Shown piece after piece: positions 2,034 to 53,200 of a DNA stretch of 64,000 nucleotides. The stretch is from the IMG/VR virus record IMGVR_UViG_3300033146_001382, positions 32,001-96,000 of that record; one strand, 5' to 3'. The notes beneath the pieces are model-generated. The model saw only the letters and a list, made by a program, of their open reading frames with translations. It did no database searches and was not told the origin of the DNA. Position 1 is the stretch's first letter, and the number at the start of each line of letters is the position of its first letter. This DNA is from a virus. Both the position numbers and the translations under genes were made by a program.

Positions 2034-2038
2034 TAAAC

Positions 2039-2058: not shown

Positions 2059-2171
2059 GCAATTACAATAATTATAATATGGTAGGGTTACAGTAAGTAG
2101 TGATGAAAATTAAGTTAAAGTTTACAAACACTGTTCCCTACCATAATTTTATATAAAAGGAGAATTACACT

Positions 2172-2378: not shown

Positions 2379-2387
2379 GATTAAAAA

Positions 2388-4394: not shown

Positions 4395-4421
4395 TCAGTA
4401 CAAAAATTATGGAGGGGACTA

Positions 4422-6825: not shown

Positions 6826-6843
6826 TAAGGAGGAAGAAAAGGT

Positions 6844-7473
6844 ATGTTTATTCCTAGACATTCAGTTGTAGAAAATCAATTTTGTAGTTATACCGAGTCT
6901 AATACATTCGGCGGAGCAGGTACAGGTGATGTAGTAGCATATGCAGGTTCAGTAGTTTATCTAGATCCAGCAGCTGCTAATGAAGAGCCAATGGTAAAAG
7001 CCATGGCTGGTGTTGTAACTCAAGCTCCTTTTGGTTTTATGATGCAAAAAGTTAAAGTAGGGTATCATAATGTACATCCTACTGGGTTTGTTATGCCAGG
7101 TGATTTAGGCTCTAGTGATGCAATAGCACAGCCATTATATAATACTGCTGGCGCTATAGTAGGTCATAAGTCTGTACCAGTAGGTATAGCTCATCTTGGT
7201 ATATTTGATACTGTTCATTATATATGTGAAGCTGCCGGTGGTACAGCTAGTGCAAAAATGGCTCCAGGGCAATCTTTGTATGCAGCGTCTTATCAAGCTA
7301 GAGTTACAAATTCTAGTAATAATACTCCAGCAGATGATGCTACGGGTGATACAGGTGAGAGAGCTTCTAATACAGTTGTTGCTAGAGTTGTTAAAGGGGC
7401 TAGTTTGGCTAAATGCCAAGCAAATATGGATAATGTAACACTCTATCCGATTAGAATGAAATTACTTGTTTGA
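6844..7473 (+). CDS. Capsid decoration (cement) protein
   Basis: 209 aa, Gly/Ala-rich, immediately before the major capsid gene; RBS AAGGAGG. Confidence 0.6.
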   Translation: MFIPRHSVVENQFCSYTESNTFGGAGTGDVVAYAGSVVYLDPAAANEEPMVKAMAGVVTQAPFGFMMQKVKVGYHNVHPTGFVMPGDLGSSDAIAQPLYNTAGAIVGHKSVPVGIAHLGIFDTVHYICEAAGGTASAKMAPGQSLYAASYQARVTNSSNNTPADDATGDTGERASNTVVARVVKGASLAKCQANMDNVTLYPIRMKLLV

Positions 7474-17536: not shown

Positions 17537-18586
17537 ATGACAACACAAATTAGAATAAGAAGAGGGACAAAAACACAGTTAGCTACATTAATGGCAGGGG
17601 CTACCCCATTAGCTAGTGGGGAACTTGGGTTTACGACTGATACTAAGGAAGTATTTGTATCTGATGGTAGTGCTACTCATTTAATAGGTAGGGTGTTAGT
17701 AGGACTACTAACAGCAAGACCTGCAGCAGGTCAGTCAGGTTCTATGTATCATGCTACGGATGATTCATCTACTTGGGTGGACAATGGCACTTCATGGGTA
17801 GATGTGTCTGGAGGGTTGTCTACTTTAGATGATTTAGCTGACGGCACGACGTATGGTAAAGTATTAAATACATATTTAGATAGTAATAGACCTGATGGTT
17901 TATGGGATGGTGCTGTAAAACTTACAGGTAGTGTACTTAGAACACATTTAAATACTATAGCACAACATAGAGAAATTAATGATGCAGGAGGGTCAAGTAC
18001 CGATTTATGGTCTGCAGATAAGATAACTACTGCTATAGATAATGCATTAACTGGTTTAGATTTTCAAGCTGATGTTATAGCTATACAGGGTGATGCGTCA
18101 TTAGATCCTACAGGTTCGCCTGTAGTAGGTGCTAGATATATAATTAACAATAGTTCATCTTTACACGCTAATTTTGGCACTATTACGGGTGTAGCGGACG
18201 GTGACATAGTAGAATATAATGGATCTATTTTCATAGTAAGTTATGATGTTTCCGTATCTGGGGAAGGAGCATTAGTATGGGATAGAGATACTGATACTTA
18301 TCAAAAGTGGGATGGGACTACTTGGGCTGAGTTTGGCGGATTATCTGGTATTACTGCTGGAAGTGGACTAACTAAGGCTGGAAATACTTTAAATGTAGGA
18401 CAAGGTAACGGTATAAATGTACTGGCAGATGCTATCACGGTAAAACCTGATGTAACTACTGGGGCCACAGTTGCCCCTGTAGCTGTAACTAGTGCCGGTG
18501 TAGGCGTTATACTTGATAATGACTCATTAGCACATGTAGGTGGCGCTGTAGAAGTAAAAAAAGTAGACGGTGGAACATTTGTATAA
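17537..18586 (+). CDS. Tail fibre-like protein with an Mtd_N/hyaluronidase-N-type anchor
   Basis: N-terminus QIRIRRGT...LASGELGFTTDTKEVFVSDG; DUF2793-like ARYII...IVEYNG...WDGTTW segment. Confidence 0.7.
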   Translation: MTTQIRIRRGTKTQLATLMAGATPLASGELGFTTDTKEVFVSDGSATHLIGRVLVGLLTARPAAGQSGSMYHATDDSSTWVDNGTSWVDVSGGLSTLDDLADGTTYGKVLNTYLDSNRPDGLWDGAVKLTGSVLRTHLNTIAQHREINDAGGSSTDLWSADKITTAIDNALTGLDFQADVIAIQGDASLDPTGSPVVGARYIINNSSSLHANFGTITGVADGDIVEYNGSIFIVSYDVSVSGEGALVWDRDTDTYQKWDGTTWAEFGGLSGITAGSGLTKAGNTLNVGQGNGINVLADAITVKPDVTTGATVAPVAVTSAGVGVILDNDSLAHVGGAVEVKKVDGGTFV

Positions 18587-18596
18587 GGAGTAATAT

Positions 18597-19901
18597 ATGA
18601 CTTCTGAAATTAAAATAAAAAGGGGTACAAAGTCCCAATTACCAACTTTAGAGCTAGCTGAGCCTGGGTTTGTAACTGATTCCAAGGAATTATACATAGG
18701 GGATGGTACTGGGAATATAAAAATTGGCGGGAATTCTACCTTCTTAGAACATGTGGATTCCCCGGCTACTTACACTAGCTATGCTAATAATGTGGTGGCA
18801 GTAAATAATGCTGAGTCTGGACTAGAATTTAAAAGTATAGATTTAACTCCTAGTACTTTGGCATTGATGGTGTATAATACCAATGCACAAACTGACGTTG
18901 ATACAGCAGAAAGTTTACAGTTGGAAGGTATAATAAGGTTGGATAGTGGTTTTAGTATGGGTGGTACTAATAGTACCGAAATAACTATTAGTGGTGCAGG
19001 TTGGTACGAATTTCAGTATTCTGTCGCATGGGATAGTGATTATAGTAATAGATCTACTATGCGTGTATATGTAGAACGTGCAGGTCTGTATGGCTGGGAA
19101 GCAATTAGTCAATCTTATTCTTATGAGTACTTACGACATAGTACTTATGGTAGAATGAGTAATAATACAGCATCTTTCTTTCTAAATTCATCTGAAGGAG
19201 AAAAATTTAGAGTTCGTATGGATGGCGCTACTACTGGTTCATTCCCATCAACTAGTGTTGATTCAGATACAATAAATAATCAGTGTTGGGTTACTATAAA
19301 ATCATTAGATTTTATGGGTATAAAGGGTAAAGATGGTAAAGATGGTAGTGACGGTGATGATGGGGTAGATGGTTCACCGGGCCCTCCTGGCTCTGGTTCT
19401 TCCACTAATGTTTACCATGAGGGTTCTACTATTTCTGGATCTCCATTTAGTACTATTAATTTTAATGGGTTGAATGTAGCTCCTAGTGTAACTAGCGGTA
19501 CTGTAGATGTAACACATACTCCTTCTATTTTTGGTACCTGGTATGGTTGGGAAACTTCTGAGTCTCAGAGTACGACTACAAGTACCTCTTGGCAACTAAA
19601 ATTAAGATATTCTTTAAGTGATATACCAGCTGGGTACTATAGAATAGGGTACCAGTGGGAGTGGCGAAGAAATCATGTAGGAACTGATTTTAAATCAAGA
19701 GTACAAATAGATGATACTAGTACGGTAGCTAATATGAATTATGAATCTAAAGATGTCCATTCGTGGCATTTAGATCAAGGATTTTACATAGCTAATTTAA
19801 CTGCAGGTAATCACTACATAGATATAGATTATTGTGGTGAATCAAGTTCATACACTAACTATATTAGGGCAGTTAGAATAGAATGTTATAGAGTGTCATA
19901 A
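18597..19901 (+). CDS. Tail fibre-like protein with an Mtd_N anchor, a jelly-roll/C1q-like domain and a short collagen stretch
   Basis: EIKIKRGT...LAEPGFVTDSKELYIGDG; ITISGAGWYEFQYSV; GIKGKDGKDGSDGDDGVDGSPGPPG (Gly-X-Y). Confidence 0.7.
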   Translation: MTSEIKIKRGTKSQLPTLELAEPGFVTDSKELYIGDGTGNIKIGGNSTFLEHVDSPATYTSYANNVVAVNNAESGLEFKSIDLTPSTLALMVYNTNAQTDVDTAESLQLEGIIRLDSGFSMGGTNSTEITISGAGWYEFQYSVAWDSDYSNRSTMRVYVERAGLYGWEAISQSYSYEYLRHSTYGRMSNNTASFFLNSSEGEKFRVRMDGATTGSFPSTSVDSDTINNQCWVTIKSLDFMGIKGKDGKDGSDGDDGVDGSPGPPGSGSSTNVYHEGSTISGSPFSTINFNGLNVAPSVTSGTVDVTHTPSIFGTWYGWETSESQSTTTSTSWQLKLRYSLSDIPAGYYRIGYQWEWRRNHVGTDFKSRVQIDDTSTVANMNYESKDVHSWHLDQGFYIANLTAGNHYIDIDYCGESSSYTNYIRAVRIECYRVS

Positions 19902-32224: not shown

Positions 32225-32289
32225 GTAATTAAGTAACTACTAAAGGTTTAAAGGGATTTCTTTCTCAAAAAAACTAGGAGGATACTAAC

Positions 32290-35200
32290 TTGGGAGAACA
32301 TATAGTAAGTCATGATATAAAAGACTCTAGAACATCAAGTAAAAGCGGAAATACACAAGGTGTTTCTGTTGTAGAATTATCTAAAACGGATAAAGCGAGT
32401 CAAAAGAAACTTAATGACGGTATAAAAGAAATTAGGTCTATTATTAAGAAACAGGCCAATGACACCGTAACTTCAAAATTATTAAGTTTAATAGAGAAAT
32501 TGATTAGTGCCACTAATCAAGGATCTAAAATAAGTAGTTCTGAATTAAAAACACTATTAAATTCTATTGTTAAGAATCAGTTTAAAGGGGGACAAGGTTC
32601 CCAGACTAAAGCTACATCTACAGCTTCTGGTGCTTTAAAGATAGACACTACTTCTATTATAAAACTTCTTACAGATAATACTAATTCAATAACTAGTGCA
32701 GTTATAAAAGCTCTAGAATCTAAGGGTATTTCTATAGATGATGCTTCTATAAAACAATTTCATAATACTATGACGTCTACTGTTAAAGATATTATACCCG
32801 CTAAATTATATTCTATAATAGGTGAACTTAATTCTACATTAGATGGAGTAGTTAAGTCCAATCAGGTAGTTGTTCAAGCCTTTAAGTCTATGAAGAAATT
32901 ACGTGCTAGTGGTGGTGAGTTAGGTGTGAGTGAAGTAATACCATTCATGAGAAATCTTGAGAAAGGATTTGTAGAAGTTAAGTCCTTAGTGTCCAAAGTA
33001 AATGGGCTTAGTTCTAGTATATCAGCTATTCCTAAAGAACTTAAAGGGGCTATGGATGGTATTAAAGATGAACTTTCTAAAATGAAAAAAAGAACCCAAA
33101 ATAGAACATATAGCGTAATTAAAGAGGTTTCAGATAGTCCAGCAAGTGCTACACAGGCTGTGGTTAAACAAGTTGCTAAGGAGTTAAGTAAGGTAGGAGA
33201 AAAAGCATCTGACCCTCAAATTAAGAAATTGATCACTAAAATAGATAAATTTTCAGGTTCTTTGGATGATTTTCCTAAATTTATAGATGCCTTAGATAAT
33301 TTTGCTAAGGCTGTGACTAATGCTAAAAGTTTAGATCCAAAAACTATTCAAAATATTTTGGCTCCTTTACAGCAAGTTTCAAAATTTGCTCCAAAGGGGC
33401 TAAAAGACGATGTATTAAGTAGTAAGCCATATAAACTTCTAATGTCTCAAATGAATAAGCTTATAGAAGTAACTAAACAAATAACTATTAAGTTTAATGT
33501 AAAAACTAATAATTTAGACAAACAAATAGATAAGGTTATTACTAAAAAAGAACGTTCTGTAGATATTACTTTAAAATCTAAGAACTCTGATACTGTTGTT
33601 AAAGAGTTAGAAGATATTTCTAAACCTAGAGAAGTTATAATTACACCTGTCATAGCTACTAAAAAAGTAGTACAATCTAGTGTTACACCTTCTAGGGCAA
33701 ATTCAAATAAAAATGTGCCTCAAAATGTATTACAGGCTAATAAAAGACAATTAGCCTGCAAAGAAAAATCAAATATATATAGTCCTGACGAAGTTAAACA
33801 ATGGTCTAATACACTGAATAGTAAAGTGGATGTATTAATAGGATCTTTAACTAAAGCAGCTAATAGCAGAGGCGCAGCAATTAATGATGCAGATTTTGTT
33901 CTACCTCCTGTAGTGGAAAGTTCAATAATTAAATTGATAGCTATCATAGATGGTATATCTAGTAGAAGAGAGAATCCTTCTGAACTTAGAAAATATATGG
34001 ATAATTTATCTGCTAATTCACGGTATACCCCCTGCATCTCCACTCAGTCAAAACGGGACATTAAAGAGGTTTATGATGTATTACACTCTGTAACTACTGA
34101 CGCTTTTAGTGACATAGTAAAGGCTTCTGAAGAGGTAGTTAAAAATTTTGAGAAACTTAAAAAATTTCCAGATCCTGTTACAAATGTAACTAAAGATACT
34201 AAACTTAGTGTTGCTAAGACTACTGAACCAGTTAAATCAATTCAACAAACTAAACCAGTTAAGTCTACAGAACCTAGTAAACCTAGTAAACCTATAAAAA
34301 CTACTAAAACTACTAAATCTACTGAGTCTAATAAAGATGCTATAGACAGTACAGCAAAGCGTAATTTAGCTCAAACAAATGGTTCTGTTATACCACGTAA
34401 ACCAGGAGCAAATGAAAATCGAGGTATACCTAGTTCTACACAACAAGATATTTATCAATATACTGAACGTAATATAGATCCTGGAACCACTACATTTACT
34501 AGTGGAGCTGATATAGGGGTAGGTGAAAAGACTAAACAAATAGTACTTGATCATGTGGCAGATTTATCAAAATCTCTTTTAGATTTACAACAATATATAG
34601 TAACTACACTTGATGAAGAATTTACTAAAGTACGAGACAAGTCTAATAAGAAGAACTGGAAGATTGTAGGTAAGACTGATACAAATCCTATTTCAGACTA
34701 TTTTAAATTAACTGAAGGGTATAATAGGAAAAAGTCTGGGAAGCAATATAGTTTTAAAATAGCTAATATTAAAGCTTTACAAGGTAAAACTGGTAGTGAT
34801 TTAGAAGATCCGACTTCTTTAATAAATAAGTTTAAAGAAGATGTATCTAAAGAGTTATTAAACGCTAATAAATTTAATTTAGCAGAATCAGTGGGTAAGT
34901 GGCTTAAACGTTTCTCTACGTCTGATATATCTAACTGGAAGGGGTTAGGCACTGATACTTCACGTAGATTAGTAGGTATCAAAACTAAACATGATTTAGG
35001 TAAAGGAACTTCCCCTTCTAAGGGTATGGTTAAGGCACTAAAAGGACTTGGTAACGATAGATTAATAAATATATTTGAAAAGACTATTAGTGAGATAGAG
35101 TCAGACCGTAGGCTTAGCGAAGAGAAATTTAAAAGGTCTCCATTACTCAGAACTATTGCTATACCTGCGGCACGTTTGACTTCCACAGGTGCTACAACTT

Positions 35201-38200
35201 TTGATACTGCTTCAGGGAGTAAACGTGTAATACCTAAATTTGCGACATATAAGACTGGTTTTGAAAATATTTTTGAGTCCTTACAAAAAACTAAATCTCT
35301 AGATATAGACAAAAGCTATGCTTCAAAGATACGTAAATTAGGAATTAGGCCTTCTGGTTCTAATTTTGAAGAAGCTAATAAGTTATCTAAATCAATGTTA
35401 ATAGATTTATCTAGTGTTAAAGATGTAGTAGATCCTGACGGTAAAAAAAGCGTAAATGCTGATGATGTGAGAGCTGACTTAGCTAAAAAGTTAGAGGCCT
35501 CGGTAGTAATAAAAGCAGGAAAATTAGCTAAAGCTAAACATGTAAATAGCCCAGAAGATATATTAAGTAAAATAGATACTAGTATTTATACTGAATTTGC
35601 TAATGGTACTAAAACTATGGAAGAATTTATAGCTGCCACTAGTGCTGCTGGGGTAGCTGCTTATGATTTAGTTAAAGGGATGGAGAGCGTTGAATTTAAA
35701 AATATTTACCAAATAATTAAAAAGTTACTGGAAGGCTCAGCAGACACCAGCACTCCTTTAAGAACATTAGGTAATAATCCCGTTTATTCTAAAAATATTC
35801 GTGATTTTGATTCAACTATTGGAAAACTTATTGGTACAATACCTATCGCTGAGGCTGCTAGGCCTAGACGGTCAACGCACCAAGAAAAAATAATAAACTT
35901 GATGAGTATGAGTACGCCTATATATAGAGAAAAAGGTGCTATAGGTCTGCAAGGTACAGAGGCTGAAGGCCAAAAACAGTTTCTTAGAGACTTAAATCTG
36001 AATCTTGCTGAGTTTGTGTCCAATACAAAAATATTAACAACTGCAGGTATGGGCAAAGATAGACTACCTTCAGATGTAAAAACTTTTTCTAGTTTAGGTA
36101 TACCTGATGGACAGGCTGGTACTATTTTAGAGTATAGGAAAGATTTTAGACATGAAGATTCAAAGTATTTAGCACCTCTTAATGCTACTAATGTAAAGCT
36201 GTATTCAGATTCATTAGCTGAGTTGTCTCCAGCAGGTGCTCAGTTTACACAGTTAGGTAGAAATACTGCTAATGTTAATAATGCTTTAGCATATAGAAGT
36301 GGAGGTGTCGGAACTGATTTTCCTAGTTTACGTTCCAATAGAGAGTCAGAGTTAATTGCTGGGGGAAGGTATGGTACTCAAGGATATGGCTTTAATGTTA
36401 CAGCTGAATTACGTAATACACCTAATACGTTCGAAGATCAAATAGTTGTATCAGGTAAATTAGCTGATGTCCTTACATCCATAACTAAAACTATAATGCA
36501 GCCAGATAAACTAGGTAGATTAGCTCTAATAGGGAGTGATGGACAAATAGCTGATACACCAGAAGGCTCTGTTAGTGATATTGTACCACAACAATTAGTA
36601 AGTGTAATTGAACAGGCTAATAGGGTATTTCAAGATGTATTAGGAATAAAACAAGAGTATAAAGGACGTGCTGAGGATGCACTAATAAAAGAGGTTACAA
36701 GCGTATTAACTACTGTAAGAGGAAAGGATGTACAGGTTCAATCAGCTAAATTAGCGGAAGTATTTTTTAATTACTATGGTAGGAAATTTACTACTAGATA
36801 TGGCTCTAAAGGTGTATCTATAACGGCTCAAGGGGGAAAAGAAGAATTAACTGGGAAGCAGCTCAATGATTTATTTGCAAATAAGAAAGTAAAAGTATTA
36901 AACCGAGAAGAGCGAGCTACTGCTGGCTTAGGAACAGCTGCACTACCTAAGAGTATGGGCCAGCTTGTGCAAGAAATATATAAAGAATACGCACAAGAGT
37001 TAGAACTTTCAAAGTCAGATTTAAAGCTTTCAAGTCAAGCACTTGTAAATAGTGGTAATAAATTTATGTTAAGTATGTTCTCTGATGCCTCTTATGGGGT
37101 TGTGTCTGATGAATTAGATCTTACAGAGCAAAATAGTTTATTTGAGGAAACAAAAAAAGCCCTAGCTAAATTAGATTTAGATTTAGCTAAGGATATTAAA
37201 GGTATAGAGGGATTAAAAGAATTTTATTCTAATATGTCTGGGGCGCAGTTGTACACTGAAAAACCTATAGACATTAGAATTAGTTCACATGGTATTGCTA
37301 AACGTGGGCTTCAAGGTGAGAACATCGAAGCCATTATGAATAATGTTATTAATTCTGGTGAAGAAGAACATACTTCTTTAGTAACTAAATTCTCACCTAC
37401 TGCATATAGGCATTTGTTAGGTACATCTACTGATACCTCTGGCAAGTTCCCAAGTTTAAATGAGTTGAGTAAGGCTCTAGGTTTTGAGAGTCAGGCAAAA
37501 GGTAAAGACAGGGCTACAGTTGTAGAAGATATGATGAAGCTACTTAAATCTAGGCATATTAAAGGTTCTTCTGAGGAACTAACAACACAAGCTAATAAGT
37601 TGGCAGATTTAGAAATAAATTCTAATTTTTATAGTAGTATACGGGATGAGTTTGGTGAAAGTAGAAAAAGTTTGGTGGGCTCAAAATTTGTAGAACTAAT
37701 AGAAGAGCCTCATGCAAATCCAGCATGGAGTGAGACTGATATAAAGAAGCAGGTAGCAGGCCAACGTTTAAATATACCTGCATTTGGGGCTTATGCTACA
37801 GTATTTGGAGAGCAATCAAAGTTTATAAAGCAGTTAACTTCGGATGTACCATTAGAGGCTAAAAAACATTGGGAGTATTTAAAAGCCCTTCAAGTGTTAA
37901 ATACTGACAGTTCAGATATGGTAGATAGCCTTATGGCATCTGCACAGGTAGTAGATGTGTCAGATTTACGTAGTTTTACTAAGTCTACAGGTAAATTTAT
38001 ACCAGCATCACAGATGGTTAATATTGATTCAATGTCAGAAGAGGAAGCAGGTAGGGTGATGAATAACTCCATCTTAGACACTGCTAAATATCCTGGCCCG
38101 ATGAATTTACAAATTCCAAATACTAAAGACCCATCTAAACGTGAGTCATTTTACGTCCCTGGGGCTCTTGCTAGAGTTACTTATCCAGAACCTAATATAG

Positions 38201-41200
38201 CAGGAGAGCGTGGACTAGATGTAGTAGCTAGACGATTGCAGTCTATTGTAAATGCAGCAAATAAGGTAGATAGTGTTAAGGGGAAGACTGGAGAAGATGG
38301 CAGTACTAAACGTTGGGATACTATAGCTAGAATAAAGGCTAAATTAAATGATTATAGATCAAGAGTTACTGAGATAGTAGGGCCTGACCCACAAACTAAA
38401 AATTTATCTTCTAATGAGGTTGGTCAACTTGAAGGGATTCTACAGAAACTATTAAAAGTATTAGACCAAGCTCCTGCTGATAATAGAATGCTTTATAGTA
38501 ATCAGAAGTATTTAAGTGGTAGTACAAGGGGTGAGGTTGTTAGGGATATTTATAAGACTAGAGGAGCAGATCAATCTCAAGCTAAAGTATACCAAACTAC
38601 TATAAATAGTGCTGTGGATCAACTTATAGGACCAGATGGAGCCCCAAACCCTAAAATGCCTCAATTTGCACAAAGATATGAACCTGATGCTAATTTATTA
38701 GGAGCTAAAGATGCATTAGGTGTCACTTCACTATCTAATTTTGCACTTAGTTTGGATGTAAAACCTGCTTCTGGAGAGGACAAACTAAAGGACGCATTAA
38801 AATCATTAGAACGCGCAAAAATTGAATATTATAATACATTAGCTAAGTCAGTTCTTGGCAAAACTGGTTCTGTACAGGAATTTTTATTTAATAGAAAACT
38901 GCCCGCTGTTATGGGTAAAGCTATAAATGCTACAGTAGATAAAACTAAAGATTTAGAAACTTTTAGTAAAGAACTTCTTTCTATAAGTAATTCTTCAGGT
39001 GATATAGGTGTAGATTTAAGTTCTTTAAGTGAAGCAGCTAGTACTATAGATGAAATAAAGATAAGTCACGCTAAGAATGTAGAAAAATCTAAAGCTAAAG
39101 GTCTACCCGTCTTGCAACAGCATGAGATAGGGATACCAGAAAATTATGCAGCTAAGCTTCCAACATCTTTTGTAAAGAGATATGATATTAATGAAGGAAG
39201 AGTAAAGGAATTACCAAAACCTATTTTTGAAAAGTCCAACTTAGCGAAAATGTTAACATATAGAGAAGAAGTAAAAGCTGCAATGCCCAGTACTGCTCCA
39301 GATATGCAGACAAAGATGAAAGCTTATCTTTCTTCTGAGTTATCTCCTTATATAGAAAGTTTACGTTTTCCGGTCACTGGGGTCTCTTCTATTCAACCTT
39401 ATGAGGCTAAATTACTTAAACCAAATGAGGACGGTACACGTCAGATGGCTAAGCACTCTTTGATGGTACCAGGAGTACCAGATTTCGATACTAGTAAATT
39501 TGATACTATAAAGGTTAAAGTAGAAGCCGTGATAGAAGGCTTAGTAGAAGATAGGGAAGCAGAATACAATAAAGACACTCCTGATTTGAGTAGAGTAGAC
39601 AAATTAACTACTACTATTTCAAGTTTAGATAAAGCATTATTTGATGTACTACCAAAATATACTGCTGCGCAACAAAATCTAGATTTTGATGGTGATCAAA
39701 TTCAATTACATGCAGCCAAAAAATCATTAGCTAGACAAGAAATAACACAGCATTTTAAAACTATAACAGATTATGATAGCCAAAAAGATACTACTGCTCA
39801 AGCTTTGAGATCTGATTTTACTTATGATGCTTTGATCCCATCTACAGGTAATTATACATTAGCAGAACAACAACTAGCTTTTGAAAAGAAATTTCCATCA
39901 GAAGAAGGTTTTGGTTTCATGACCAAACCTTTCTTAACAAAAGATTTAGAGTATTTGAAACCTGCAGAGCAGCTAGACATTTTAAGTAATTATCCAGGAA
40001 CTGAAGGTGCAGAAGTAACTCCATTAACTGTACTAGATAATTTATTACCAGAGTTATTTAGAAATGCAAAGCAGATGAGTAAAATAATGGAAACTTTAGA
40101 AGCAGTAGTACCAGGTGTAGATGATGAGGGTAAGTCTACTTATAGTAAGGACCTCCTAACTGCTTTAAGCAATATGAAATCTCCAGATGGTAAGACTAAT
40201 GGTACACAGGTTGATGTATTTAAAGAAGGTATAAAAAATAAGTTATACGACACTAAAATGACTAATGCTATTAATGCTAACTTCTTTAAGTTAAATACTG
40301 GACAAGATACTGAGGCACTTAATAGGCAATTAAAACTATTTGAAAGAAATTTAGGTTATGGTGGTGGCCTTATAAGACAAGGTGCAAAATATAATCCAAC
40401 TGAAAACCTAGCTCAAAGGTTTCCATTAGACTTAAAATCAATGGGAAATATTATAGGTGAAGAATTACATACTATGGTTAATGAGTTTGTTCGTTTTGGT
40501 GAACAGAAAGGGCTAGATGTAAAACATGCTGGATCTTTACCAGTAGCTACTGAGATGGCACAATTAATATCACAAGGAAGCTCTGGAGTAAAAAAGTTGA
40601 TTGATAAAATAAATACTAAGGGTGGTTCTTATGGAGAGCTAGCTGATTTTAAGGATGCTAACTATAAAGTTTTAAATCATAGGTTAGGCGCTATGTCTAC
40701 TGAAGATTTATACACAGATGCTACCAAAATTGCAAGTGGTAGAGGAGAACCAACAGCTAAACTTGATTCTAGTAGTAGAGACCAACTAAAAGAGTATATC
40801 ATTAGCTCTATTGGTTTTGAAGGTTTTTTATATGAATTAAGTAATCAAGTTATAGAAGGAGCACAGGAGGGATTAAAAGCAGCTATTAGTACTTGGTCAG
40901 AGTCCAAAAAACAGAAAGAATTTAAAGGTATGAATGAGGATAATTATGTAAAGTCTATTATTAGAAAACAACTTAAAGGTGGTGGGGTAAATATATCAGG
41001 CACCGCTGAAAATCCTTTAATGCCTTTATACAAAATGAGGACTTCTTCAGCTTCAGGGTATGGCCAAAGAAAATTACATATGGATAAGTATGGCGATCCT
41101 GAAGTACCAGAATTAGATGGTATTTTTGAAGGAGATGAAGCCAAAGCTTATGTATCTAAACTTAAAGAGGCAAAAGCTGTGGCAAAGAATATTCAAGATG

Positions 41201-44200
41201 CTTTAACTGATTTTAGTGCTAATAAACTAGGTAATCGTAGAGGCAGCTATAATATGCTTTTAGCTAGTGATATAGACAATATTTACAATGATCAACGTAT
41301 AATCCAAGAGTTAGTAAAATCACTTGAAGGTAAAGAAGATACTATAGAATCTAGTGTAGCGGATAGGTTAAGTGGTAATAGCCCTATGAGTAATTTAGCT
41401 ATTGAGGCATTAAGTAAGCCAAATAACACAGTTAGAAAAGAATTTCTAGAGATTAAGGGTAGAGCTGTATCAGTCCCTAGTATAGGTCAAGAGTCAGCAG
41501 CTATTTCGAACGAGGAGTATATTACCACTGCTTCTATGTTAGCTGAAAGGGATCTACCTATGCCTGTACAAGGTGATACTACTAATAAAGAGTATGCTGC
41601 CATTCTTATCGAGCATGAAAAAGCTGTAGATAAATTAAAAGATAAATACTTAGCTGATGCACTGGTTATAGCTCAAACTGATACAATATTGAAAGCTGCA
41701 ATGAGTAGGGCAGAAGAAATAGGTTTTGTAACTAGATTATTACCCGAGGATGCTAGATCCTACAATGACCGTAGGCAGAGGGTTACTCAAGCAGCTCAGG
41801 AAAGTGCTAATAATGCTAATCAGAGTACTAACACTAATAGTAACTTAGGGGTGGATATACTTCAAAGGTCTATGCCAGCTGGAGGTGCTGGTACTCCAGA
41901 AGGTAGTTTAGTTAAATTTAGTGGAGGCCCGGCAGTTGACGTACGTATTGTAGCTGTAGCTGAGGGAGTAGGTATTTTCTTAGGTAAAACTGCTGGTATA
42001 GCACAGACTACTGAAGAACAACAACCTAGATTTAGTATTTCCTCCGAGTTGGAAGAAAAAATAAAAAAAGCAGAAAATATAGTTAAAGACATAACTGGAG
42101 GGTTGAATAACGCAAAAGGCGATAGTTTTGCTAATAAGTATAGAGCTAGTGGCCTAAAAGGTGGGTATGGTAATCGTCAAATTTCTGAAATAAAAAAACA
42201 AATGCAGGGTTTTCAAGCTAACGAAGACATTTTGGACTCTACCTCTTTATTAGGTACAGGTATTCATGCTAAATTAGAGGGAGGCTACCAGAGTAAGGGG
42301 TATGCTACTGAAAAGCCTGTGAGATACGACTCACCAGAAGGGGAAATTTCAGGCACTGTAGACGCTATTAAATATGAAAATGGTAAAGCCAAACATATAG
42401 TTGATATTAAAACTACTAGTGCTCTTAATTATGAGGATTTACATAGAGGAGTGGCTCGATTCCAAGAGAAGACTGGTAAAAAAACACCTACCTTAGAAGA
42501 GATTAAACCTTATGTAGGGAAAGCCCTGAGTAGTACTAAATTGGATGATGTAGCTTCTCAGTTAAATTTGTATCTCAGAGCTACTAATACTAATGCTAAA
42601 GCATCAGCACATTTCTATAGTAGGGAAGATCCAGACCTAGAACCTATAAAACTAGATCAATTTTTTGATGCAGATAGATTGAAAGCAGATGTTACGGCTA
42701 TAGGACAAGCTAGAAAGGAGATTAAACGTGAAGGTGGTACGTTTGCACCTACAGCTTCTTATGAAGAAGCTAAAATTATAGCTAAAGAAACTAAACCAGT
42801 AACACCAGAAAGAATAGAAGAATTAATTTCTATAGCTACTGAATACTATAATTCAGTTAAGCAGGGGCAACATACACAGAAGAATATGCCAGCTTCTGGT
42901 GGGTTAAGGGATAATGAACTATATACTATAGGTATAAGGGCTAGGGAATACCAAAGCCAATCTAAAGCTTTTGATGATATGGTAAGAGCTACACCTGTAG
43001 TAGAGGGTAAAGAAACTTATAATGTACACCAGAATTTAACAACTTTGCATGAAAGAGCCAGAATTACACAACAAAAAAGAGGTGTAGAGACTTCAGGGCC
43101 TCAATTTAATAAATTCAATGAGGAAGTGCAGAGTAAAATAACCGAAGCCTCAAAAAAAGGACCTGCAGGTGCCGAATTTAGTGCTTTAATAACACATCTT
43201 AAAGATACCTCACAAATTGATGGTAGCAAGATAAATGCAGCATGGAAAGCTTATCGTGTGGCAGTAGGGGATTATTTTGTAAAAGAAATGGCAGAGGCAA
43301 GAAGGCAGCTAACTAATGACTCTGCTAATGATGATAACATTGTACCTCGTTTTGGCGAGTATAGTAAGGTAGTAAAGAATTTCCAACGGTTTGTAAAGCA
43401 AGGTATTGGTAAAAAAACTGATATATACACAGCTAATTCTCAGTATTTTAATCCTGAGTCAGCTAGAGGCGCAGGTGTATATATGGATACTGATGATTTG
43501 ATAAAAAAATCTTCTAAGCCTTTGGGTGAAGACACTAAATTAATTAGTCTTTTTAAACGTATAACCTCATTGGAAGAAAATGAAGTACCTATACCTAGGG
43601 ATGCAATTAGGGATGTACTAGAAGATTTAATGGATATGGATCATGCATTAATTAGCTTGTATACTGATGCTGAATTAGTAGCTAAAATAGGTCCTAAAAT
43701 AAAGAATGGTTGGAGGTTTGACAGACTTAAAGGTGGTTTGTCAAAAATGCGAGCAGCACTTGAGTTACAACTAAATCAACCTGTAAAAGAGTTATATGAT
43801 GAAGACCAAATAGCTTATTTGAAACAGGTATTAAAAGAGTTGAAAAGTCTAGAGACTGTTTATATCGACTTAGATTTAGATACTGACTCATTTGAAAATA
43901 CCCTTGGTGAATATAAATTTCCTACATTAATACCAGTTCCTAAACAATTACCTAGGAATCAGCAATTGGCTTCTCACTATAAGAACGTTGAGGGTTTAAA
44001 ATCTCATTATAGAACTCCAGAAGCTCAAGGTGGTGCAAAAACTGGAGATTCCTTTGTTTATCCTATTAAAACCTATGGTCCAAGTGGTAAACTTATGGAT
44101 AACCAGAGATTTGTTATTTCTAAGTGGGGAGAAACTATTAATTCTGCAGGAGATTCTATACCTGTTTTAAAAAGTAGACTAGATGATTTAAATAAATCAC

Positions 44201-47200
44201 TGGTTGATGGTAATAGAACATTTAGTGTGGCTATAGAAAGGGTAGTTAAGTGGGGAGCTGCTGCTACTTTAGTATATGGTGGGATGAGTTATATTAAAGA
44301 TGCAGTTAACCATATGGCAGATGTAGAGACAGCTATGGCTAGGTTGAGAATGGTGATGAATCCATTAACTACTGATTTTGATGCTCTACAGAAATCAGCA
44401 TTAGGGTTTGCTCAGCAATATGGTGTAGAGACAACAGATGTTTTAGGTAGTATGAAGGTATTTGCTCAGCAGGGGTTATCACAAGGTGAGGTACAAGATA
44501 GGACTCAGACTTCTACATTAGCTGCTAATGTTACTACTTTAAGTGCTACAGATGCTACTGAAGCATTAACTGCTTCTATGAAAGTGTTCAGGTCTGAGGG
44601 CGAAAATTCTATGAGATTTCTAGATTCTTGGAGCCAAGTAGAGGCTAGAGCAGCAATTACAGCTGGAGATCTTGCTGACGCTATAAAAAAATCAGCATCA
44701 GCTGGTAAAAATGCAGGATTTACTTTTGATGAACTAAATGGTATGATAGCTGCTATAGGTTCAGTAACTCGTAAATCAGGTAAAGAGATTGGTACTTCTT
44801 TGAGATTCATTTTTAGACGTATTTCAGCTGATAAAGCTCCTAAAGCTCTTAAAAATGTAGGGGTAAGCACTACTACAGATAAAGGGGAACTTAGGTCTGG
44901 TTTTGCTGTTTTAGGCGACTTAGCTAGTGAGTGGGATAACTTAGCTCAAGCACAAAAATTAAGTATTGCCCAAGCAATAGGTGGTACTCGTCAATATAAT
45001 CAAGTACTAGTTTTAATGGATAATTGGGATCAGGTAGTTAAAAGTTTAGGGGATAGTTTAGACGCCAAAGGTTCAGCCGAGAGACGTAATCTTCAGTTAA
45101 TGAAGACTTATACTAAACAGTTAGAACAAACTAAGGCAGTTTTTTCAGCTTTAAAGATAGAGGTAGGTAAAGTAGTACTACCTAGTTTTAAAGTAGCTAT
45201 GAGTGGTATAAGAGGCCTCATTGAAGTAGTAAATAATGTACCTGAGTCTATAAAACTAGCTGGTGCTGGTATAGTTTTATTCGTAGGTTATATTACTAAG
45301 GGAGCTTCTGCTCTTAATTATATTATAAACATGGTGGATAGAACTAAATTATCGTTTGCTGCCTTAAAGGATGATTTTGCTAAAGGACTTGGGCAAGGTC
45401 TGTTTGAATCTTTTGGTAAAGGTAGTCCTGAGCTAGATTCTAATTTATTTGGATTGTCTAGTTTGGGGGATTCTGGTACTAGGAATATTAATGATATGAC
45501 TAGTTCAATGGGTAAGTTAGCCTTTGGTGTATTAGCAGCAGGGCAAGCTTTTAATAAATTTTCTGGTATAGTAGTTAAAGATACTGGAGGAGCTTCTAAG
45601 GTAGTTGCAAAATACCTAAAGACAGCAGGTAAGTTAGTTTCAGCTGTAGGCACTGGAGCACTTTTAGCGCCAATACCTGGTCCAGTTGATGATATTATAG
45701 GAGGTGCCACTGAGTTCGCTGGGGAAGCTTTAAAAGGGACTGCAGGAACTTTTGATTTCCTAGGTGATACTATGGGTAAAGGGGCCCAAGCATGGATAGA
45801 GAATTTTGCGTCTAGTAACTCTTCTGCCGTAAAGTCAGTAATGCCATTAATGGCAACTCTTGGAGGATTAGCAGCAATGGCACCTATAGTCAGTACTGCT
45901 TTTAAAAATTTAACTCAGACCGCTAAAGATTATAAAGATGAGCAACTGAATAGACTTGAAGTAGATGCTAAAGAAATAGATTCTATACAAGGGCTTATTA
46001 CTTCATATAAAGACCTTCAGTCTCAAAAACAAAGAATCGCAAAATTGTCTACCCCAGAGGAGCAGGCAAAGAATATTAAACAAGGTGACTACAAAAGTCC
46101 GGTGTTTGAAGAAATAGATAGTTTAAAGACTACTAGAAAATTTAATGCTTCCTTAAGTGGTTTAGATTCCAATATGGTTGATGGCTTTGATGAGTTTGGG
46201 CGAGTTATAATTAATAACAAAGGTAATTTAAAGGAATACTTAGAAGAATTAAAACGGGCTAAAACGATTTCTTTGGCCTTGTCAAAAATTAAAATTACTT
46301 CTAGATTTACAGAAGACTTGACTAAGACAGATGGTAATCAAGAGTGGAAGTACCAAGTTCAACAGCTTGCTAAGGAATTCCCTTTAATAGGTGATATGCT
46401 AGCTAAGGGTATATCAGTAGGGCCTAAGAAAGCTTTGGAAGTGTTACAAACTGAGCTAACTCAGCTTTTAGACGCAAAAGCTGAAAATCCTATGTCCACA
46501 GCGTTTGATCAAGATATAAAGACAGCACTTACTGCTCATTCTAAAATACTGAAAACATTTGCTTCTGAATACTCTGAAATTTCTAAAACTTTAAGTGGTA
46601 TTAGTATTAGTGGTACTACTTTATCTGATGTAACTAATTTATTTAATTCAGGGGATGCCTTGGCTACTTTTGATTTACAAGCAGCATATGAAGATAAATA
46701 CAATATTGCTAGTGTGAAAGGTACTGTTAGTGGTAAGGATATAGCGGCATCCAAAATACTATCTACCCAAGCAGGTGGAAATTCATCATATGTAGAGGCT
46801 TCTCGCTTATTAACAGAGAATAATTTATTTAGTGCAGGTAGGCTACCTAGAGCTCCAGATGCTACTGGAAATATTTCAGTAGAGAATAATGATTTTGTAA
46901 CACTCAATAAGGATTTTGCTAAAGCGCATAATATAGCTACCGAACAAGCTATTTTAATAATAGATAAAAATAACCATACGTTTCTGCAGTATATAGATTC
47001 TATTTCTGGTGCACCTAAGACTAAAAAGATTTCTAAATGGGATCTAGCGAGAGCTGCCAGGGGATTTTTTCCAGCAGAGGCTATCTTACGAAAAACTAAA
47101 GCAGATATAACTAAATTAAATACATTCATCTCTGGGGCTTCAGCAGGCTTAATAGGAATTTCTGATAAGGGGTTAAAAAAACGTCAATTTAGTTTAGGAG

Positions 47201-50200
47201 AGAAATTTTTTGACCAGGTGTCTACTGATACTTTGTTACAATCTAATAAGGGTTTTGATATTACTAATAGAACTTTTGGTGAACCTAAGTATAAAGAAAA
47301 TCAGTCAAAAGATTTTATAAAGAAATACTATGATCCATTACAAGAGTACAACTCACTTAAATCAAGGCTAGGTGGGGAGGAGTCAACTCCGAAGGATGGG
47401 GATCGTTTGGGCAGTACTGCTAAAAGGTTTAAAGAGCTACAGGATATACTTAAAAATAACTCTGTTGCATTTCAATATAAAGCTGCAATAGAAGATTTAT
47501 CGAAAACACTTTATGCTGGGGAGCGGGCCATACGTAAAAATATTGAGGCAGAGAAGTCTAGACAGACTATAGACAAAGAGACGTCTGGATTCCTACAGGG
47601 TAAGACTAAAGGGATTAGTTCCCTTAATTTAGGTGTTAGGGATTATAAAGACTTAAATCCACAGCAAAAGGCCTCAGTAAAATTCAAAAGTTATGATAGT
47701 GTAGCTAAAAGTATATTAGTACAAGAGACAAATTTAGAGGGGTTACTTAATAACTATAAAGAGTTAGCCAACACATATGCAGATGTAAAGGAGATAAAGT
47801 TAGTATCTAAGGCATTCGGTGCAGTAATGCAGCCAAAAAGACATACAGAGTTATTATCCGCTATGGATAAAGTAGGTGGGGATAAAGGTACTGCTCAGTT
47901 ATATTTAAAGATGTCAGAGTTAAAATCCCCATTAGATGACATTAATATTAATACAGCTAAAACAGTTGATTTGCTAGATAAAGATAGTGCTAAAGTTACT
48001 AAGGCTAAAAATATAGTAAATTTAAATTTAGAAGAGGCTAATAAAAAGAAATTACGTGGTGAGAGGCTGAATACCTTTAAAACCGAGTTTTCACCTGGAG
48101 TAGTCATTATTAAAAATTTAGATATGTTATTAACTAAAAGAGATTCAGCTGCTAAAGTTGGGGACAAAGCTACTGTAAAAATGTTAGATTCTTATTTGAC
48201 TAAGTCATATGGTAAGCTCATAAAAACGTTTGGTGTAGCAAATACAGTTAAATTAGCTAAAGAACTTTATTATAAGGATGAGACTAGGTCACGTACGTCA
48301 AGGGTTTTAAGTTTAGGTCTCCACGGGTTGGGTACAGACCCTACTAGGTTGACACAGGTGATAGAATCAAAAAAACTTTCTGACGCTGCAAGTGTTGGTA
48401 ATAAATTAACTAAATTATTTTCTAAAGATCATCCTTGGAAGTCCTATATAGATAAAAGATTTACTAACTATACACCTAAAAAGACATCAGAGGCTATGAA
48501 TTTAGAATCTACTTATTCAAAGAAAGCTAAGTCTCCTTGGTTTGCGCCAAAAACTTTTGAAAAGGCACTATTGGTGGGTAATATAGTTACGGCATTTAAA
48601 GGAGCCTCACTTAAAGAGAAAAGAGACACTGTATTAGATAATATAGTTAAATTACAAAAAAGAAAGTCTGCACTATCTACTAATGACGAAACTACTAAAT
48701 CTAGAATTGATGAAGAAATAACTACTAATAAGTCACTTTTAAAAAGGGATTTAGATCCTAAAATTTATTTAAATAATATTCTAAAATCAACTGCTAGAGC
48801 TGCGTTTGTGGCTTATGAGGGTGCTGACACTTTTAAAGTGTCAGCAACCAATAAAGAAAATCTAGCAGTTACTGCTGGTGGCATTTTTATGTTGATGAAG
48901 GGGTTAGAGGGAAAGATAGGAAAAGAAAATATGCCAGAGTATTTTAAGAAATTCTCTAAAAAAGTAGGCCCAGCTTTTACAGAAGCAGCAACATCAGGGG
49001 ATTTTTCTAAAGTTACATCCTTAGGCTCTGACACAAAATCGTTTTTGGGTGAATTTACAGGATCTATGAAAGAGCAGTTTAAGGAATTTAAAGATGGTAG
49101 TAAGTCATCCGGCACAGTTAAAGATGATAGGAGTGATTCTGAAAAATTAAGGGAGTTGTCTAAATTAAAAAAGTCAGAGCAGGCGTTAGCCGATCTTAAA
49201 AAGCAACTATCTGCTGGTAATACAGGGGCACTAAGATCTATTGAAGCAGCACTTTATGCTTTTGGTGGTGTAGCTACATTAGGTTGGAAAGCTTCTAAAG
49301 GTGAAACAGCTGCTAAAATTAAAGATGATAAAAAGTTAGCTGAGGCACAATCAAAAGCTATGCTAGAATATACAATTAAAAATGCATCGGAGGTAGATAA
49401 TTATATACTTAATAATGAAAAATCAAAGAAAGAGAAAAAATCAAATATAGCTGCTAAGCCTGCCGGAAAGCCAGATGACATTATTATGGATACCAATAAA
49501 AATTTTATTGATATTGTAGAAACACTAAAGGCTTCTGGAGGCAGTTATCTAGAGGTAATTAAAAAACTACAAGATGTACTAGGAAATGATAAGTCATTTG
49601 CAAATCTTATAGTAGATGTTACTAGGATTCAATCCTCCTTAGAGAACTTTAGAGGTGAACTTATAAAGACATTCAGTACTTTTGATGATAAGAGAATACT
49701 AGCGCCTATTAGGTCTTTAAATGGTAAATTGACTGGGTTTGGTGGTGATATACAACTACCGGTTAGTGAAAGAGAAATGTCCCCACAACAAAGATTTTAT
49801 GCTGGTGGATCAAAAGAGTTACAGAGTATCTTTACACTAATGTCAAAAGCTGCCATGGTACAAGAAACTAATTTAAGAGCTATTGGTTCTGTAAGATCTG
49901 AAATTAGTACTATTACTCAAAATCTTTCTAAAAGTACTGAATCCGGAGCTTCTGAAAAAGATATAGTTTATTGGGAAGAAGAGTTATTACGACTTAATGC
50001 TATATTAAATAAATTAAAGCAAGATACTGGTAAACTTAATGAACAAACACAGACATTAAGTACTACTATGCGTGCAGCTAATAAATATGCTAATGCTATT
50101 TATAAATTAAATGATGCATTAGAAGACATAACGGTAGATCACATTGTTTCAGGTTTAACAGGTTTAAAGACTTATTTTAAGTCGTTTAATAAATTAATGG

Positions 50201-53200
50201 GAGGGTCAGATTCATTAGCAGTACAGCCTATAACTCCAGAGCAACAAAGAATGGGGACTAAAGTAGGGGTACCATTAGAATTTAATATATCTACTAATAA
50301 GGATATAGAGAAGGCACAATTACGTACTGAACTTAAGAACGCTTCTGATACTAAATCTAAAGCGGCCGCTCAACGTAAAATAAATGATTTAGAAGAAAAG
50401 TATAGACGATTGGAGTTGGAGCAGTCACAGAAAGAAGAGAATTCACGATTAACTTCCAATATGCGGCCATATACAGATTTTTACAAAGAGATAACTCGTC
50501 TACAGGTCAGTGGTGGTTTAAATGACAAACAAATTAGTGACATAGAAGAAGTTAAAGTAATAATTAATAAAGCTATAGGTGGTGCTACTAAACCTATACC
50601 AATAGAAGATGCTATAAAACGATTAAAAACTAATGAAGATAGTATGGGTAACACTCAGTTTAAAATGGCTATGAATGAGTTACTTAAATTTAAGGAGACA
50701 GGCACTGAGTTTGTTTACCAGGGTGTCGCTGACTCAAATGAGCTTCAAGATGCTATAAATAGATTACGTATAGCATATGAAGATGAATTAAAGACTATTG
50801 CAGCTGATAATGGGGAAACTACTATATCTACCGCATTAAGAGATGAGGTAGCAGATCCTATAGTTGGAGTTATAAATTTATCTAATAAATTATTAGAAGA
50901 GTTAGTTACTGAGTTTGTGGGGCAAACAGCTACGGATATGGTATTAAAGGAATTTGAGAAAAAACAAGTAGTGCCTAGTTATCTTAAGGCTGTTTCATCT
51001 TCTAAAGAGTTAAGTACATCACCTAAGAGTAAAGTATTTAGAAATAGTTTTACTACCCCAGCTGATGAATTAAAACCATTACCTTCTGTCATAGATACTG
51101 ATTTTAATAAAGTATTTAATGATAAAAAATTCTTGGCTCAATCACCTGTAGAGCGCACCGAGTATAATAATAGAGGGGCAACTCCTAATATGTTTGAAAA
51201 AATTGAAGGGTTTATTAATCCTAATAAGACGATTAAGACATATGAAAAGCCTTCTATTATGGAGAATGTGTATATTCCATCTAGTACGCAAGATAATATA
51301 GAAACTAATGAAATGGCTAATGGTATTCTAATTTCAAAATCACAGGATATTTCTACAATGTCTGGAAACCCTCAAAAAATTATTACTGATCAAGAGACCA
51401 AAGACATTCTAAAAGAGATAGCTGTAAACAGTAAGGCAGTAGACAAAGAACAACCAAAAGAAGCCCTAAAAAAAGCTATAGGTGGTAGAATATTTGGTGA
51501 AGGTGGGCCAAGAGAAGATAAAGTCCCGGCTTATTTAAGTCCTGGGGAATTTGTTATACGTGCTGCTTCTGCACAGCAGATAGGCTATCAGAATCTGGAT
51601 GTAATGAATAAGAAGGGTAGAGTACCATTAAAGTTTAAAGATGGAGGACTAACACCAGAACTTATAGGTAAGGCTCATACATACTTTACTGACCCAGATG
51701 CTGAAGCGCCTATACCTACATTTGATTCAAAGAATGAAGAAAAATTTAATTCTAAGTTAACCAAAAAGTACCTTGATTTATATAGATCATTATTACCTGA
51801 AGAAGCTAGAGAAAATGAGTCTATTAAGTTGGCATCTACTTTTCGTGGTTTTTATAATACTTTAATAGATTTAAATGAGGCTGAGGTTTTTTCAGACGAC
51901 GAACTATTTGCTGTAGATGCTTCTATGATGTTAAATAAGTTTAAAGAGATGCAAAGTAATAAAGGTATATTAGGCTTTATGCAACGTTCATTAAGTAAGA
52001 AGACTGGGGCTACAGCAGGTGCAAGAGCACTCACAGGTTTGGATAAAGTTGATTTGCTAAAGGAAATAAATACTTATGCTGACGGTGGGAAAGCTATTAG
52101 TACTATTACAGGTAAACCTATTCCTACTGCTGAAGAAAAAGAAGTAGGTATGTCAAAGATGCGTGAGGCCTTAGGATTCGTAGCGTCAGTTGCTCATCCT
52201 TATACTTCTATCCCTACCTCTATTTATGGTATGTACCAGGGATTTAAAGAAAGTGGTTTTAATATGAAGTCTATGGTAGAAGGGGCCGGTATTCTAGAGA
52301 TAATGAATTTTATACCACAAGCTAAAAAACTAGGTAAAGTTGGGAAATTTTTAAGTAAAGGAGTAGGTAAATATGTAGATAACGCTGGAGATATTAATGA
52401 TTATTTTAATATTACTGGTAAATTAACTAAAGCCCCAGAAACGTATAAAGTGACAAAACCTATACATAGGGACTTTGGGCCATTAAGTGCATCATTTAAA
52501 GATGGCGGTTCAGTACTTTCTGAAGAAAAACAAAATGAACACGATGCTTTATATTCAAGGTTTCCAAGTAATACTGAATCTAATTATAACTCAAAAAGTA
52601 CTGTTAATTTAAATAAAGTGAGAAGTTTTATAGGTGACTCTACAGGAGTAGCAGAAGTTGACGCTTCATTATTTAATAAGAGGCTTAATACTTCTATTGG
52701 AAGTCGTAGATCTGTAGCTAGACTACTTAAAGATTCTTATATGGCCCCAGATAAAAATAATGAAGTAATGAATACTGATGTTTTAAAGTTAACAGCTAAA
52801 TCTAATAGTAAGCTAATGAATAATAAAGTACGAAATTTTATAGGTGATTCTACTGGTGCAGTAGAGGTAGATGATACTTTATTTAATCGTAGGCTTAATT
52901 CTTCGGATGACTTACAGTCAGTAGCTGATTTACTTAAAAATAATTATAATAAAATTGATACTAATAATGAAAAATTAAATACTGATGTTTTAAAACTTAC
53001 TGAAGAACCAACTAAACCTTTAAATATTAAGAACTTACATGCTAAGTATCCTAAATCAAATAGCAGATTATTAGCTAATAATAAGGAAGCTACTACATCA
53101 TATCATATCCCTATGGGGGATGGAAGTAGTGAGATATCTACTAATGATTGGCCTCCATCCCAAAATCTACTTGACTTAATTAGAAATAACTGGAGTTCGT

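Follow-up and report, generated by a model that had tools for sequence, protein, structure and literature searches.

The question raised by this locus is whether a phage tape measure gene also encodes an RNA polymerase (RNAP) of the cellular type. The window, i.e. the whole stretch of DNA analyzed, comprises 64,000 nucleotides (positions 32,001 to 96,000) of IMGVR_UViG_3300033146_001382, a linear IMG/VR virus record of 189,441 bp with a CheckV completeness of 72%. The G+C content of the window is 33-38% and every large open reading frame (ORF) is located on the + strand. A sequence-only reading had proposed that a polymerase with the core of the cellular beta and beta' subunits is hidden inside a giant tape measure protein. 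Motif conservation, profile alignments to polymerases that pass Pfam, structural matches of the beta'-like half and tape measure hits in the same ORF all speak for this proposal. We consider it likely that the ORF, P0001, is the tape measure of an uncultured jumbo-range phage and that it carries a single-chain DNA-dependent RNAP together with a nuclease, which would be ejected to transcribe the first genes.

32290..55560, + strand: giant ORF P0001, one open frame of 7,756 amino acids (aa); tape measure protein with embedded polymerase and nuclease
32276..32281, + strand: Shine-Dalgarno sequence AGGAGG, 8 nt 5' of the TTG start, read directly from the sequence

The motif strings on which the proposal was based were all recovered in this one frame: FED at aa 1381 (nt 36430), RKFTTRYGSKG at aa 1498, KPIDIRISSHGIAKR at aa 1658, GQR at aa 1824, LGKTG at aa 2189, HEIGIP at aa 2278, RFP at aa 2359 and NLDFDGD at aa 2463 (nt 39676). 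With the exception of GQR they are conserved. The column that holds GQR reads KGx[KR] in the family, and 0.74 copies of GQR are expected from the composition of the ORF; on these two grounds we rejected it as a polymerase motif and regard it as a chance match. The copies expected from composition are 0.0045 for DFDGD, 0.0003 for RYGSKG and 0.04 for FEDQ.

A word-indexed search identified 28 homologues of 4,530-7,930 aa, with 33-70% identity over aa 1300-2700. Seven extended motifs were invariant or nearly so among 29 full-length sequences (FEDQ, GRKxTTR[YF]G[ST]KGV, PIDxRISxxGxxKRGLQ, GKxG, ExGxP, RxPFTG, and KLDFDGDxIxxH), and the beta-like motifs were conserved likewise in 82 partial sequences (85% non-redundant) from IMG/VR, metagenome and metagenome-assembled genome (MAG) contigs. 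The E and D of FEDQ were invariant in both the 29 and the 82 sequences, among which identity is only 30-70%, and the F and Q were nearly so. The polymerase motifs are under strong purifying selection, and the module appears catalytically intact. In the full-length alignment the best-conserved blocks were aa ~800-3000 and aa 4000-4300, with a local conservation peak at aa 6401-6500, while aa 1-800 were variable and the linkers at aa ~3000-3300 and ~3500-3700 were poorly conserved. The conserved block, about aa 800-3000, is wider than the span at first assigned to the polymerase (36230-40540).

Besides its giant members, the family profile picks up smaller proteins (800-1,160 aa; E 1e-16 to 1e-4), in which FEDQ and NLDFDGD are present and RHGNKG is found in several. 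Three alignments were used for profile comparison with hhalign: A2, the family alignment; A3, the alignment of aa 1150-1720; and A4, an alignment of eleven free-standing single-chain polymerases of ~1,000 aa. Members of A4 score 26.8-39.9 bits against PF00562 (RNA_pol_Rpb2_6; cut-off 23.4), and two of them also score 25.6 and 26.8 bits against PF00623 (cut-off 25.3). The A2 profile aligned with A4 at Prob 99.8% and E 3.9e-29 over 410 columns, which include FEDQ, GxKxTxRxGxKGV and PIDxxxS..KR and cover aa ~1265-2000, and A3 aligned with A4 at Prob 98.6% and E 1.2e-15. A4 was in turn found to match E. coli beta (RpoB) 1046-1117 at Prob 90.7% and E 1.3e-6. When the beta'-like part alone was compared with A4, the DFDGD segment was matched at E 3e-5 and the GKxG and RxPFTG segments followed weakly in the same order. 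In a direct comparison of the family with E. coli RpoB and RpoC, the top, non-significant matches fell exactly on GDKMAGRHGNKGV and NADFDGDQMAVH. Judged from these profile alignments, the module is homologous to polymerases passing the Pfam RpoB and RpoC domain models. Its parts are as follows.

34687..36081, + strand: family-conserved region preceding the polymerase (aa ~800-1264), from the conservation profile and consensus; no Pfam or PHROG match
36082..37905, + strand: beta-like half (aa ~1265-1872), from hhalign to A4; AlphaFold did not confirm the fold
36430..36441, + strand: FEDQ motif, counterpart of beta ...NFEDS..., by conservation and alignment with FEDQ of the A4 polymerases
36778..36816, + strand: GRKFTTRYGSKGV motif, counterpart of beta GDKMAGRHGNKGV, by conservation and hhalign via A4
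37264..37314, + strand: PIDIRISSHGIAKRGLQ motif, counterpart of beta PVDIVLNPLGVPSRMNIGQ, by conservation and hhalign via A4
37906..39837, + strand: beta'-like N-terminal half, from the clamp to the active-site barrel (aa 1873-2516), by structural matches of the AlphaFold model
38149..38253, + strand: FYVPG...RRLQSIVN segment, set against beta' ~244-290 (PPDLRP...LYRRVINRNN), by family conservation and via A4
38857..38868, + strand: GKTG motif, counterpart of beta' GKQGRFRQN; GKxG conserved, weak collinear alignment
39124..39138, + strand: EIGIP motif, counterpart of beta' CGLP; ExGxP conserved, predicted strand E940-944 in model 1
39364..39381, + strand: RFPVTG motif, counterpart of beta' RAPTLH; RxPFTG invariant
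39676..39711, + strand: NLDFDGDQIQLH, catalytic metal-binding DxDxD loop and next strand; three Asp invariant, PF00623 match here
39838..41289, + strand: conserved continuation (aa ~2517-3000), expected site of bridge helix and trigger loop, by conservation

The match of the FYVPG...RRLQSIVN segment, made through A4 to beta' 244-374, was weak (hhalign E 0.045) and kept the order of the motifs. Within the continuation the conserved segments are aa ~2655-2680 and ~2724-2752. Only two cysteines occur in the whole protein, at positions below aa 600; the polymerase module is cysteine-free and so lacks the Zn-binding sites found in cellular beta'.

Structure prediction was in agreement with the profile alignments for the beta'-like half. 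AlphaFold2 model 1 (aa 1340-2539, 27 sequences) had a mean predicted local distance difference test (pLDDT) of 74.6. Compared with 48,161 representative chains by VIA-align, independently of Foldseek, it matched RNAP largest subunits at Z 7.7-9.7, with 226-300 residues aligned at 9-17% identity. These came from Pol I, II, III, and IV, archaea, bacteria, plastids, African swine fever virus (ASFV), vaccinia and phage AR9, and the list was mixed with short helical-bundle matches of 90-130 residues. Foldseek returned nothing at E <= 0.001 for the same 1,200-residue model; its highest probabilities, 0.3-0.38, were for beta' chains. When Foldseek's top 1,000 chains were realigned with VIA-align, RNAP largest subunits made up 50 of the 50 listed entries (Z 9.3-10.0, 245-291 residues, 13-17% identity). 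Residues 534-1177 of the model superpose on E. coli beta' 23-506 (Z about 9.5-9.8, 260-282 residues), the archaeal clamp domain 3qqc_A aligns over 151 residues at Z 9.1, and predicted strands flank the DFDGD loop. The predicted fold of aa 1873-2516 thereby resembles that of beta' from the clamp to the active site.

The ORF is a bona fide tape measure protein. PF10145 (PhageMin_Tail) was matched over its full profile (1-201) at E 3.3e-28, with 99.4 bits against a cut-off of 33.2, and phrog_4211 (E 6.1e-75) and 11 more tape measure PHROGs were found at aa ~3943-4807. With the usual tape measure scaling of ~0.15 nm per residue, aa 3943-7756 alone would correspond to a tail of about 570 nm. A nuclease domain is located between the polymerase and the tape measure core. 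Its motifs GTxxHxK, E, GxxD, DIKT, and SQxNxY are intact, and they are conserved in about 24 of 29 homologues. The cysteine cluster of the Fe-S type seen in Cas4 is lacking, as there is no Cys in aa 3271-3480, so that we regard the domain as generally RecB-like rather than as Cas4 proper. A second nuclease 5' of the polymerase was sought in aa 700-1300 by Pfam, PHROG and motif inspection, which gave no match and no recognizable motif.

42247..42579, + strand: RecB/Cas4-like PD-(D/E)xK nuclease domain (aa ~3320-3430); phrog_1706 at E 4e-4, conserved motifs
44116..46710, + strand: tape measure core (aa ~3943-4807); PF10145 PhageMin_Tail at 44389-44985, PHROGs
51313..51675, + strand: tape measure C-terminal-type segment (aa ~6342-6462); phrog_3547, phrog_973, phrog_25241 and phrog_6090, all tape measure families

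Repeats were also observed in the tape measure part. Near its C-terminus, at 54721-55059, there are at least five tandem 19-residue peptide repeats (VDKTPIPIDSSSLDGVVLE-like), and further duplicated segments are aa 6772-6830 and 6842-6900 (FIGDSTG) and aa 6930 and 6975 (NNKEATTSY).

The fusion is not peculiar to this record. All 28 homologues share the architecture and contain PF10145, and those that were named by their source are called 'TP901 family phage tail tape measure protein', in line with the expectation that such genes would be annotated only as tape measures. Environmental contigs yielded 34 loci of the family from IMG/VR and 77 from metagenomes, and polymerase and tape measure share one uninterrupted ORF in more than 100 loci. 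When 1.84 billion representatives were searched exhaustively with the profile, 142 clusters at 50% identity were recovered, ~60 of which are giants of 6.5-8 thousand aa. The same search retrieved more distant giants of 4-7 thousand aa in which DFDGD is kept; PF10145 was found in one of the two distant giants tested, P0133 (4,651 aa), where it covers aa 2531-2725 and follows DFDGD at aa 1388. GenBank phages searched by tblastn and megablast gave no match for the polymerase region or the upstream 12 kb, and no description of this fused family was found in the literature searched.

In a distant relative (L034/L129, from G005, a 256,335-bp record that is 97% complete) the open frame that contains the polymerase module spans 12,316 codons. 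Three of the family's contigs (L037, L038, and L039; 16-25 kb) were binned in MAGs labelled Woesearchaeota, Gammaproteobacteria and Fermentibacteria. We rejected these labels as an indication of the host: the contigs are short, the labels are mutually inconsistent, and the contigs are probably mis-binned phage fragments.

A search with A4 of the records from which twelve related loci derive revealed a second polymerase in some relatives. One free-standing paralogue, L119 (1,102 aa), is located at G001:C1:44388-47519 on the - strand of a 268,764-bp record that is 100% complete, and another of 1,178 aa (L127) at G004:C1:113078-116341 on the + strand of a 237,910-bp record that is 87% complete. 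Both records also carry the giant fusion, and L119 and L127 are candidate non-virion polymerases. G002 (89% complete) and G005 (97% complete) carried the fused copy only. GenBank phages gave no match for the free-standing paralogue P0151.

The tail lumen is filled by the tape measure protein, which is the first to leave it at infection. Because of this established biology and of P23-45 gp96, we propose that the fused polymerase is ejected and has a pre-early role. The beta-like half (aa ~1265-1872) would be joined head-to-tail with the beta'-like half (from aa ~1873 to 2516 or beyond, probably to ~3000), and the protein would read, in order, variable N-terminal region, polymerase, RecB/Cas4-like nuclease, and tape measure core. 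The protein would be located in the tail and be expelled at infection into the cell envelope and cytoplasm, with its N-terminal part beside the incoming DNA end. The polymerase would then end up at or near the tape measure pore, next to the entering DNA, where it could transcribe the earliest phage genes without recourse to host RNAP, and its translocation on DNA might help to pull in the long genome. The nuclease would be delivered together with it. The free-standing paralogue of the relatives with near-complete genomes would probably take over later, giving a virion and a non-virion polymerase pair. On this analysis virion delivery and pre-early transcription by the fused polymerase are plausible.

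Several observations weigh against this scheme. For a polymerase part that would be packaged, ejected and active, the passage of a folded module of ~250 kDa through the tail tube is without explanation. The direct Pfam evidence is sub-threshold: PF00623 (RNA_pol_Rpb1_2), the sole recurrent family (10 of 27 members), is matched at the DFDGD site at E 2.3e-4, below the cut-off, and reached E 1.6e-5 and 22.4 bits against a cut-off of 25.3 in a six-frame scan of the genome. Single-sequence and profile searches of PDB sequences gave no polymerase match and coiled-coil noise only, and the link from the family to the beta subunit is transitive, through A4. A bridge helix and trigger loop were sought in aa 2480-3300 by hhalign against A4 and RpoC, and no similarity was found. 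The two-barrel fold anticipated from the sequence is also borne out only in part. Whereas the beta'-like barrel is supported by model 1, the FEDQ, RYGSKG, and PID segments have a pLDDT below 50 and are drawn helical both there and in model 2 (aa 1150-1720, 82 sequences), which was aimed at the beta-like barrel; that barrel is absent from the models and is neither confirmed nor excluded. Fold searches with model 2 (VIA-align against the 48,161 chains, and Foldseek) returned helical noise only, and an ESM Atlas feature search with aa 1330-1700 was uninformative (best score 0.84).

The genome as a whole adds two further points on the same side. No second polymerase was found in the 189 kb of the record (completeness 72%), and synteny with the paralogue loci of the relatives was too weak to place a paralogue in the missing 28%. 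As G002, G005, and the window's record have the fused copy only, the pairing of a fused and a free polymerase is not shown to be universal. A screen of repeated k-mers for promoters of the polymerase gave one iteron-like array with a sigma-70-type promoter only, outside the window. Near the left end of the record, at G000:C1:2560-2760 and ~29 kb before the window start, about ten CTAGTA(C/T)TA(C/T)CT repeats are followed by a perfect TTGACA-17 nt-TATAAT promoter, and an inverted pair of the 14-mer of the array is found at 4903/4940. This arrangement resembles a host-type promoter under the control of an operator or iteron array, and host RNAP may transcribe part of the genome.

The same observations can be used to weigh other explanations. 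The giant ORF could encode a polyprotein from which polymerase and nuclease are cut off during tail assembly, so that the polymerase is not ejected and either acts in the producing cell, e.g., on late genes, or is discarded. Some tape measures, such as lambda gpH, are processed during assembly, ~1,400 residues separate the polymerase from the tape core downstream of it, with linkers of low conservation at aa ~3000-3300 and ~3500-3700, and the free-standing paralogue of the relatives indicates that polymerase function does not need the fusion. Yet the fusion is intact in the more than 100 loci and in diverged subfamilies such as that of P0133, there is no obvious rationale for making a late polymerase equimolar with a low-copy tail protein, and the fused form is the virion enzyme in P23-45 (PMC10770324). 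We therefore find the polyprotein unlikely. More doubtful still is an inactive relic that has lost RNA synthesis and whose role in the tape measure is structural, or to bind DNA or act as a plug. The unpredicted beta-like barrel, the bridge helix and trigger loop that were not found and the lack of Zn-binding cysteines would fit such a relic, but residues needed for catalysis alone are invariant at 30-35% identity (the three Asp of DFDGD, the E and D of FEDQ, and the R and K of RYGSKG), and relics normally lose these. That the motifs are fortuitous in a long low-complexity protein with no homology to polymerases is very improbable: GQR was indeed a chance match and single-sequence searches of PDB and GenBank phages found nothing, but the other motifs stand in canonical order and are conserved, the profile-profile alignment to Pfam-passing polymerases is at E 3.9e-29, and the top 50 structural matches consist entirely of RNAP largest subunits.

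For the tape measure with an ejected polymerase, a broader interpretation seems to us possible, if not quite probable. The fusion would have arisen independently, from the cellular-type two-barrel branch, in jumbo phages of sediment and groundwater worldwide. Together with a free paralogue it would make early transcription completely host-independent, and the fused enzyme and the co-delivered nuclease, acting at the tape measure pore, would help to draw ~250 kb or more of DNA through a tail of several hundred nm. Tape-coupled pre-early transcription would then be a general strategy, reached convergently by very long-tailed phages.

The surroundings of the giant ORF give little further information on its role. 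Its immediate neighbors had no Pfam or PHROG hits. Two adjacent upstream genes at 17537-19901 (349 and 434 aa) begin with Mtd_N, the major tropism determinant's N-terminal domain (43 and 52 bits), the second of them carries a collagen-like stretch, and they probably encode fibre or receptor-binding proteins. The tail sheath PF04984 was not found, which does not decide the tail type.

If the fused polymerase is active, coupling of early transcription to the tail would be a recurrent solution rather than a curiosity. It would also pose a mechanistic question, namely how a cysteine-free polymerase of ~250 kDa is stored and passed through the tail tube, and give structural and evolutionary studies a natural beta-beta' polymerase that is single-chain and Zn-free. 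As current pipelines name such genes 'tape measure protein' only, phage-encoded polymerases are under-counted.

Among known polymerases, the closest detectable relatives of the module are the free-standing single-chain beta-beta' enzymes of uncultured phages in A4 (800-1,180 aa; Prob 99.8%, E 3.9e-29). Common to these enzymes and the module are FEDQ, R[HY]G[NS]KGV, PIDxxxS..KR, and NLDFDGD. Unlike the module, the A4 enzymes have no tape fusion and lack both a helical insert of ~150 aa between KGV and PID and an insert of ~60 aa before DFDGD, and their C-terminal parts have no similarity to aa 2480-3300 of the giant ORF. Cellular RpoB and RpoC have their catalytic motifs in the same order as the module, which differs from them in being one chain, in a much shorter linker between FED and RYGSKG with no flap-sized insert, in the lack of Zn-binding cysteines, and in having no known alpha or omega partners.

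YonO of the Bacillus prophage SPbeta is, as the module is proposed to be, a single chain with both barrels fused; it is not virion-associated and has no tape measure fusion. With hhalign YonO had no similarity to the family or to A4 (E 0.5-0.7). The concept of an early-gene polymerase carried in the particle and ejected as part of a very large protein is also found for gp66 of phi14:2 and the N4 enzyme, neither of which is located in a tape measure. The gp66 of the crAss-like phage phi14:2 is a capsid-packaged, QDE-1-like two-barrel enzyme, and the N4 enzyme is T7-like. Compared with model 1, gp66 gave a Foldseek E of 0.4, and QDE-1 aligned over 144 residues at Z 7.8.

To our knowledge, experimentally known fusions of an injected RNAP with a tape measure are limited to one phage group, the Thermus phage P23-45 and its close kin. 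In gp96 of P23-45 the tape measure is preceded in the same chain by the virion polymerase, which takes up the N-terminal 1,540 residues (Chaban et al., 2024; PMC10770324). The enzyme was described as flat and clamp-less and was grouped with phage, plasmid and QDE-1-type enzymes (PMC10770324). P74-26, G20c, and TSP4 also have a tape measure-fused virion polymerase. Both gp96 and the giant ORF of the window join, in one chain, a tape measure to a polymerase carrying a DFDGD metal site, which is of the two-barrel type in gp96 and probably so in the window, and the role proposed for both is that of an injected enzyme for pre-early genes. The relatives G001 and G004 further resemble P23-45 in that their second, free-standing polymerase is the closest relative of the fused one, as in the gp96/gp64 pair.

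The two fusions differ in several respects. In gp96 the polymerase is N-terminal, with DFDGD at 779-783 of 5,002 aa, whereas the module of the window starts near aa 1265 and has DFDGD at 2465-2469 of 7,756 aa. The module is predicted to align with the clamp and active-site region of cellular beta'/Rpb1, unlike the clamp-less gp96, and beta/beta' motifs are kept in its family and recognized by Pfam in its paralogues. The giant ORF has a RecB/Cas4-like nuclease, and a metallopeptidase of the type annotated in gp96 was not found in it by Pfam or PHROG. BLASTP of gp96 against all 156 collected proteins gave no match, and hhalign of the family profile against gp96, which has limited power with a single-sequence template, reached E 0.17, at an unrelated position outside the active site. 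The suggestion that this phage belongs to another lineage than P23-45 agrees with both results. The tape-fused RNAP is thus a known concept; what is new here, and apparently unreported, is a much larger family that is unrelated to P23-45 and widespread in sediment metagenomes, in which the fused enzyme would be of the cellular beta/beta' type, placed in the middle of the protein and accompanied by a nuclease.

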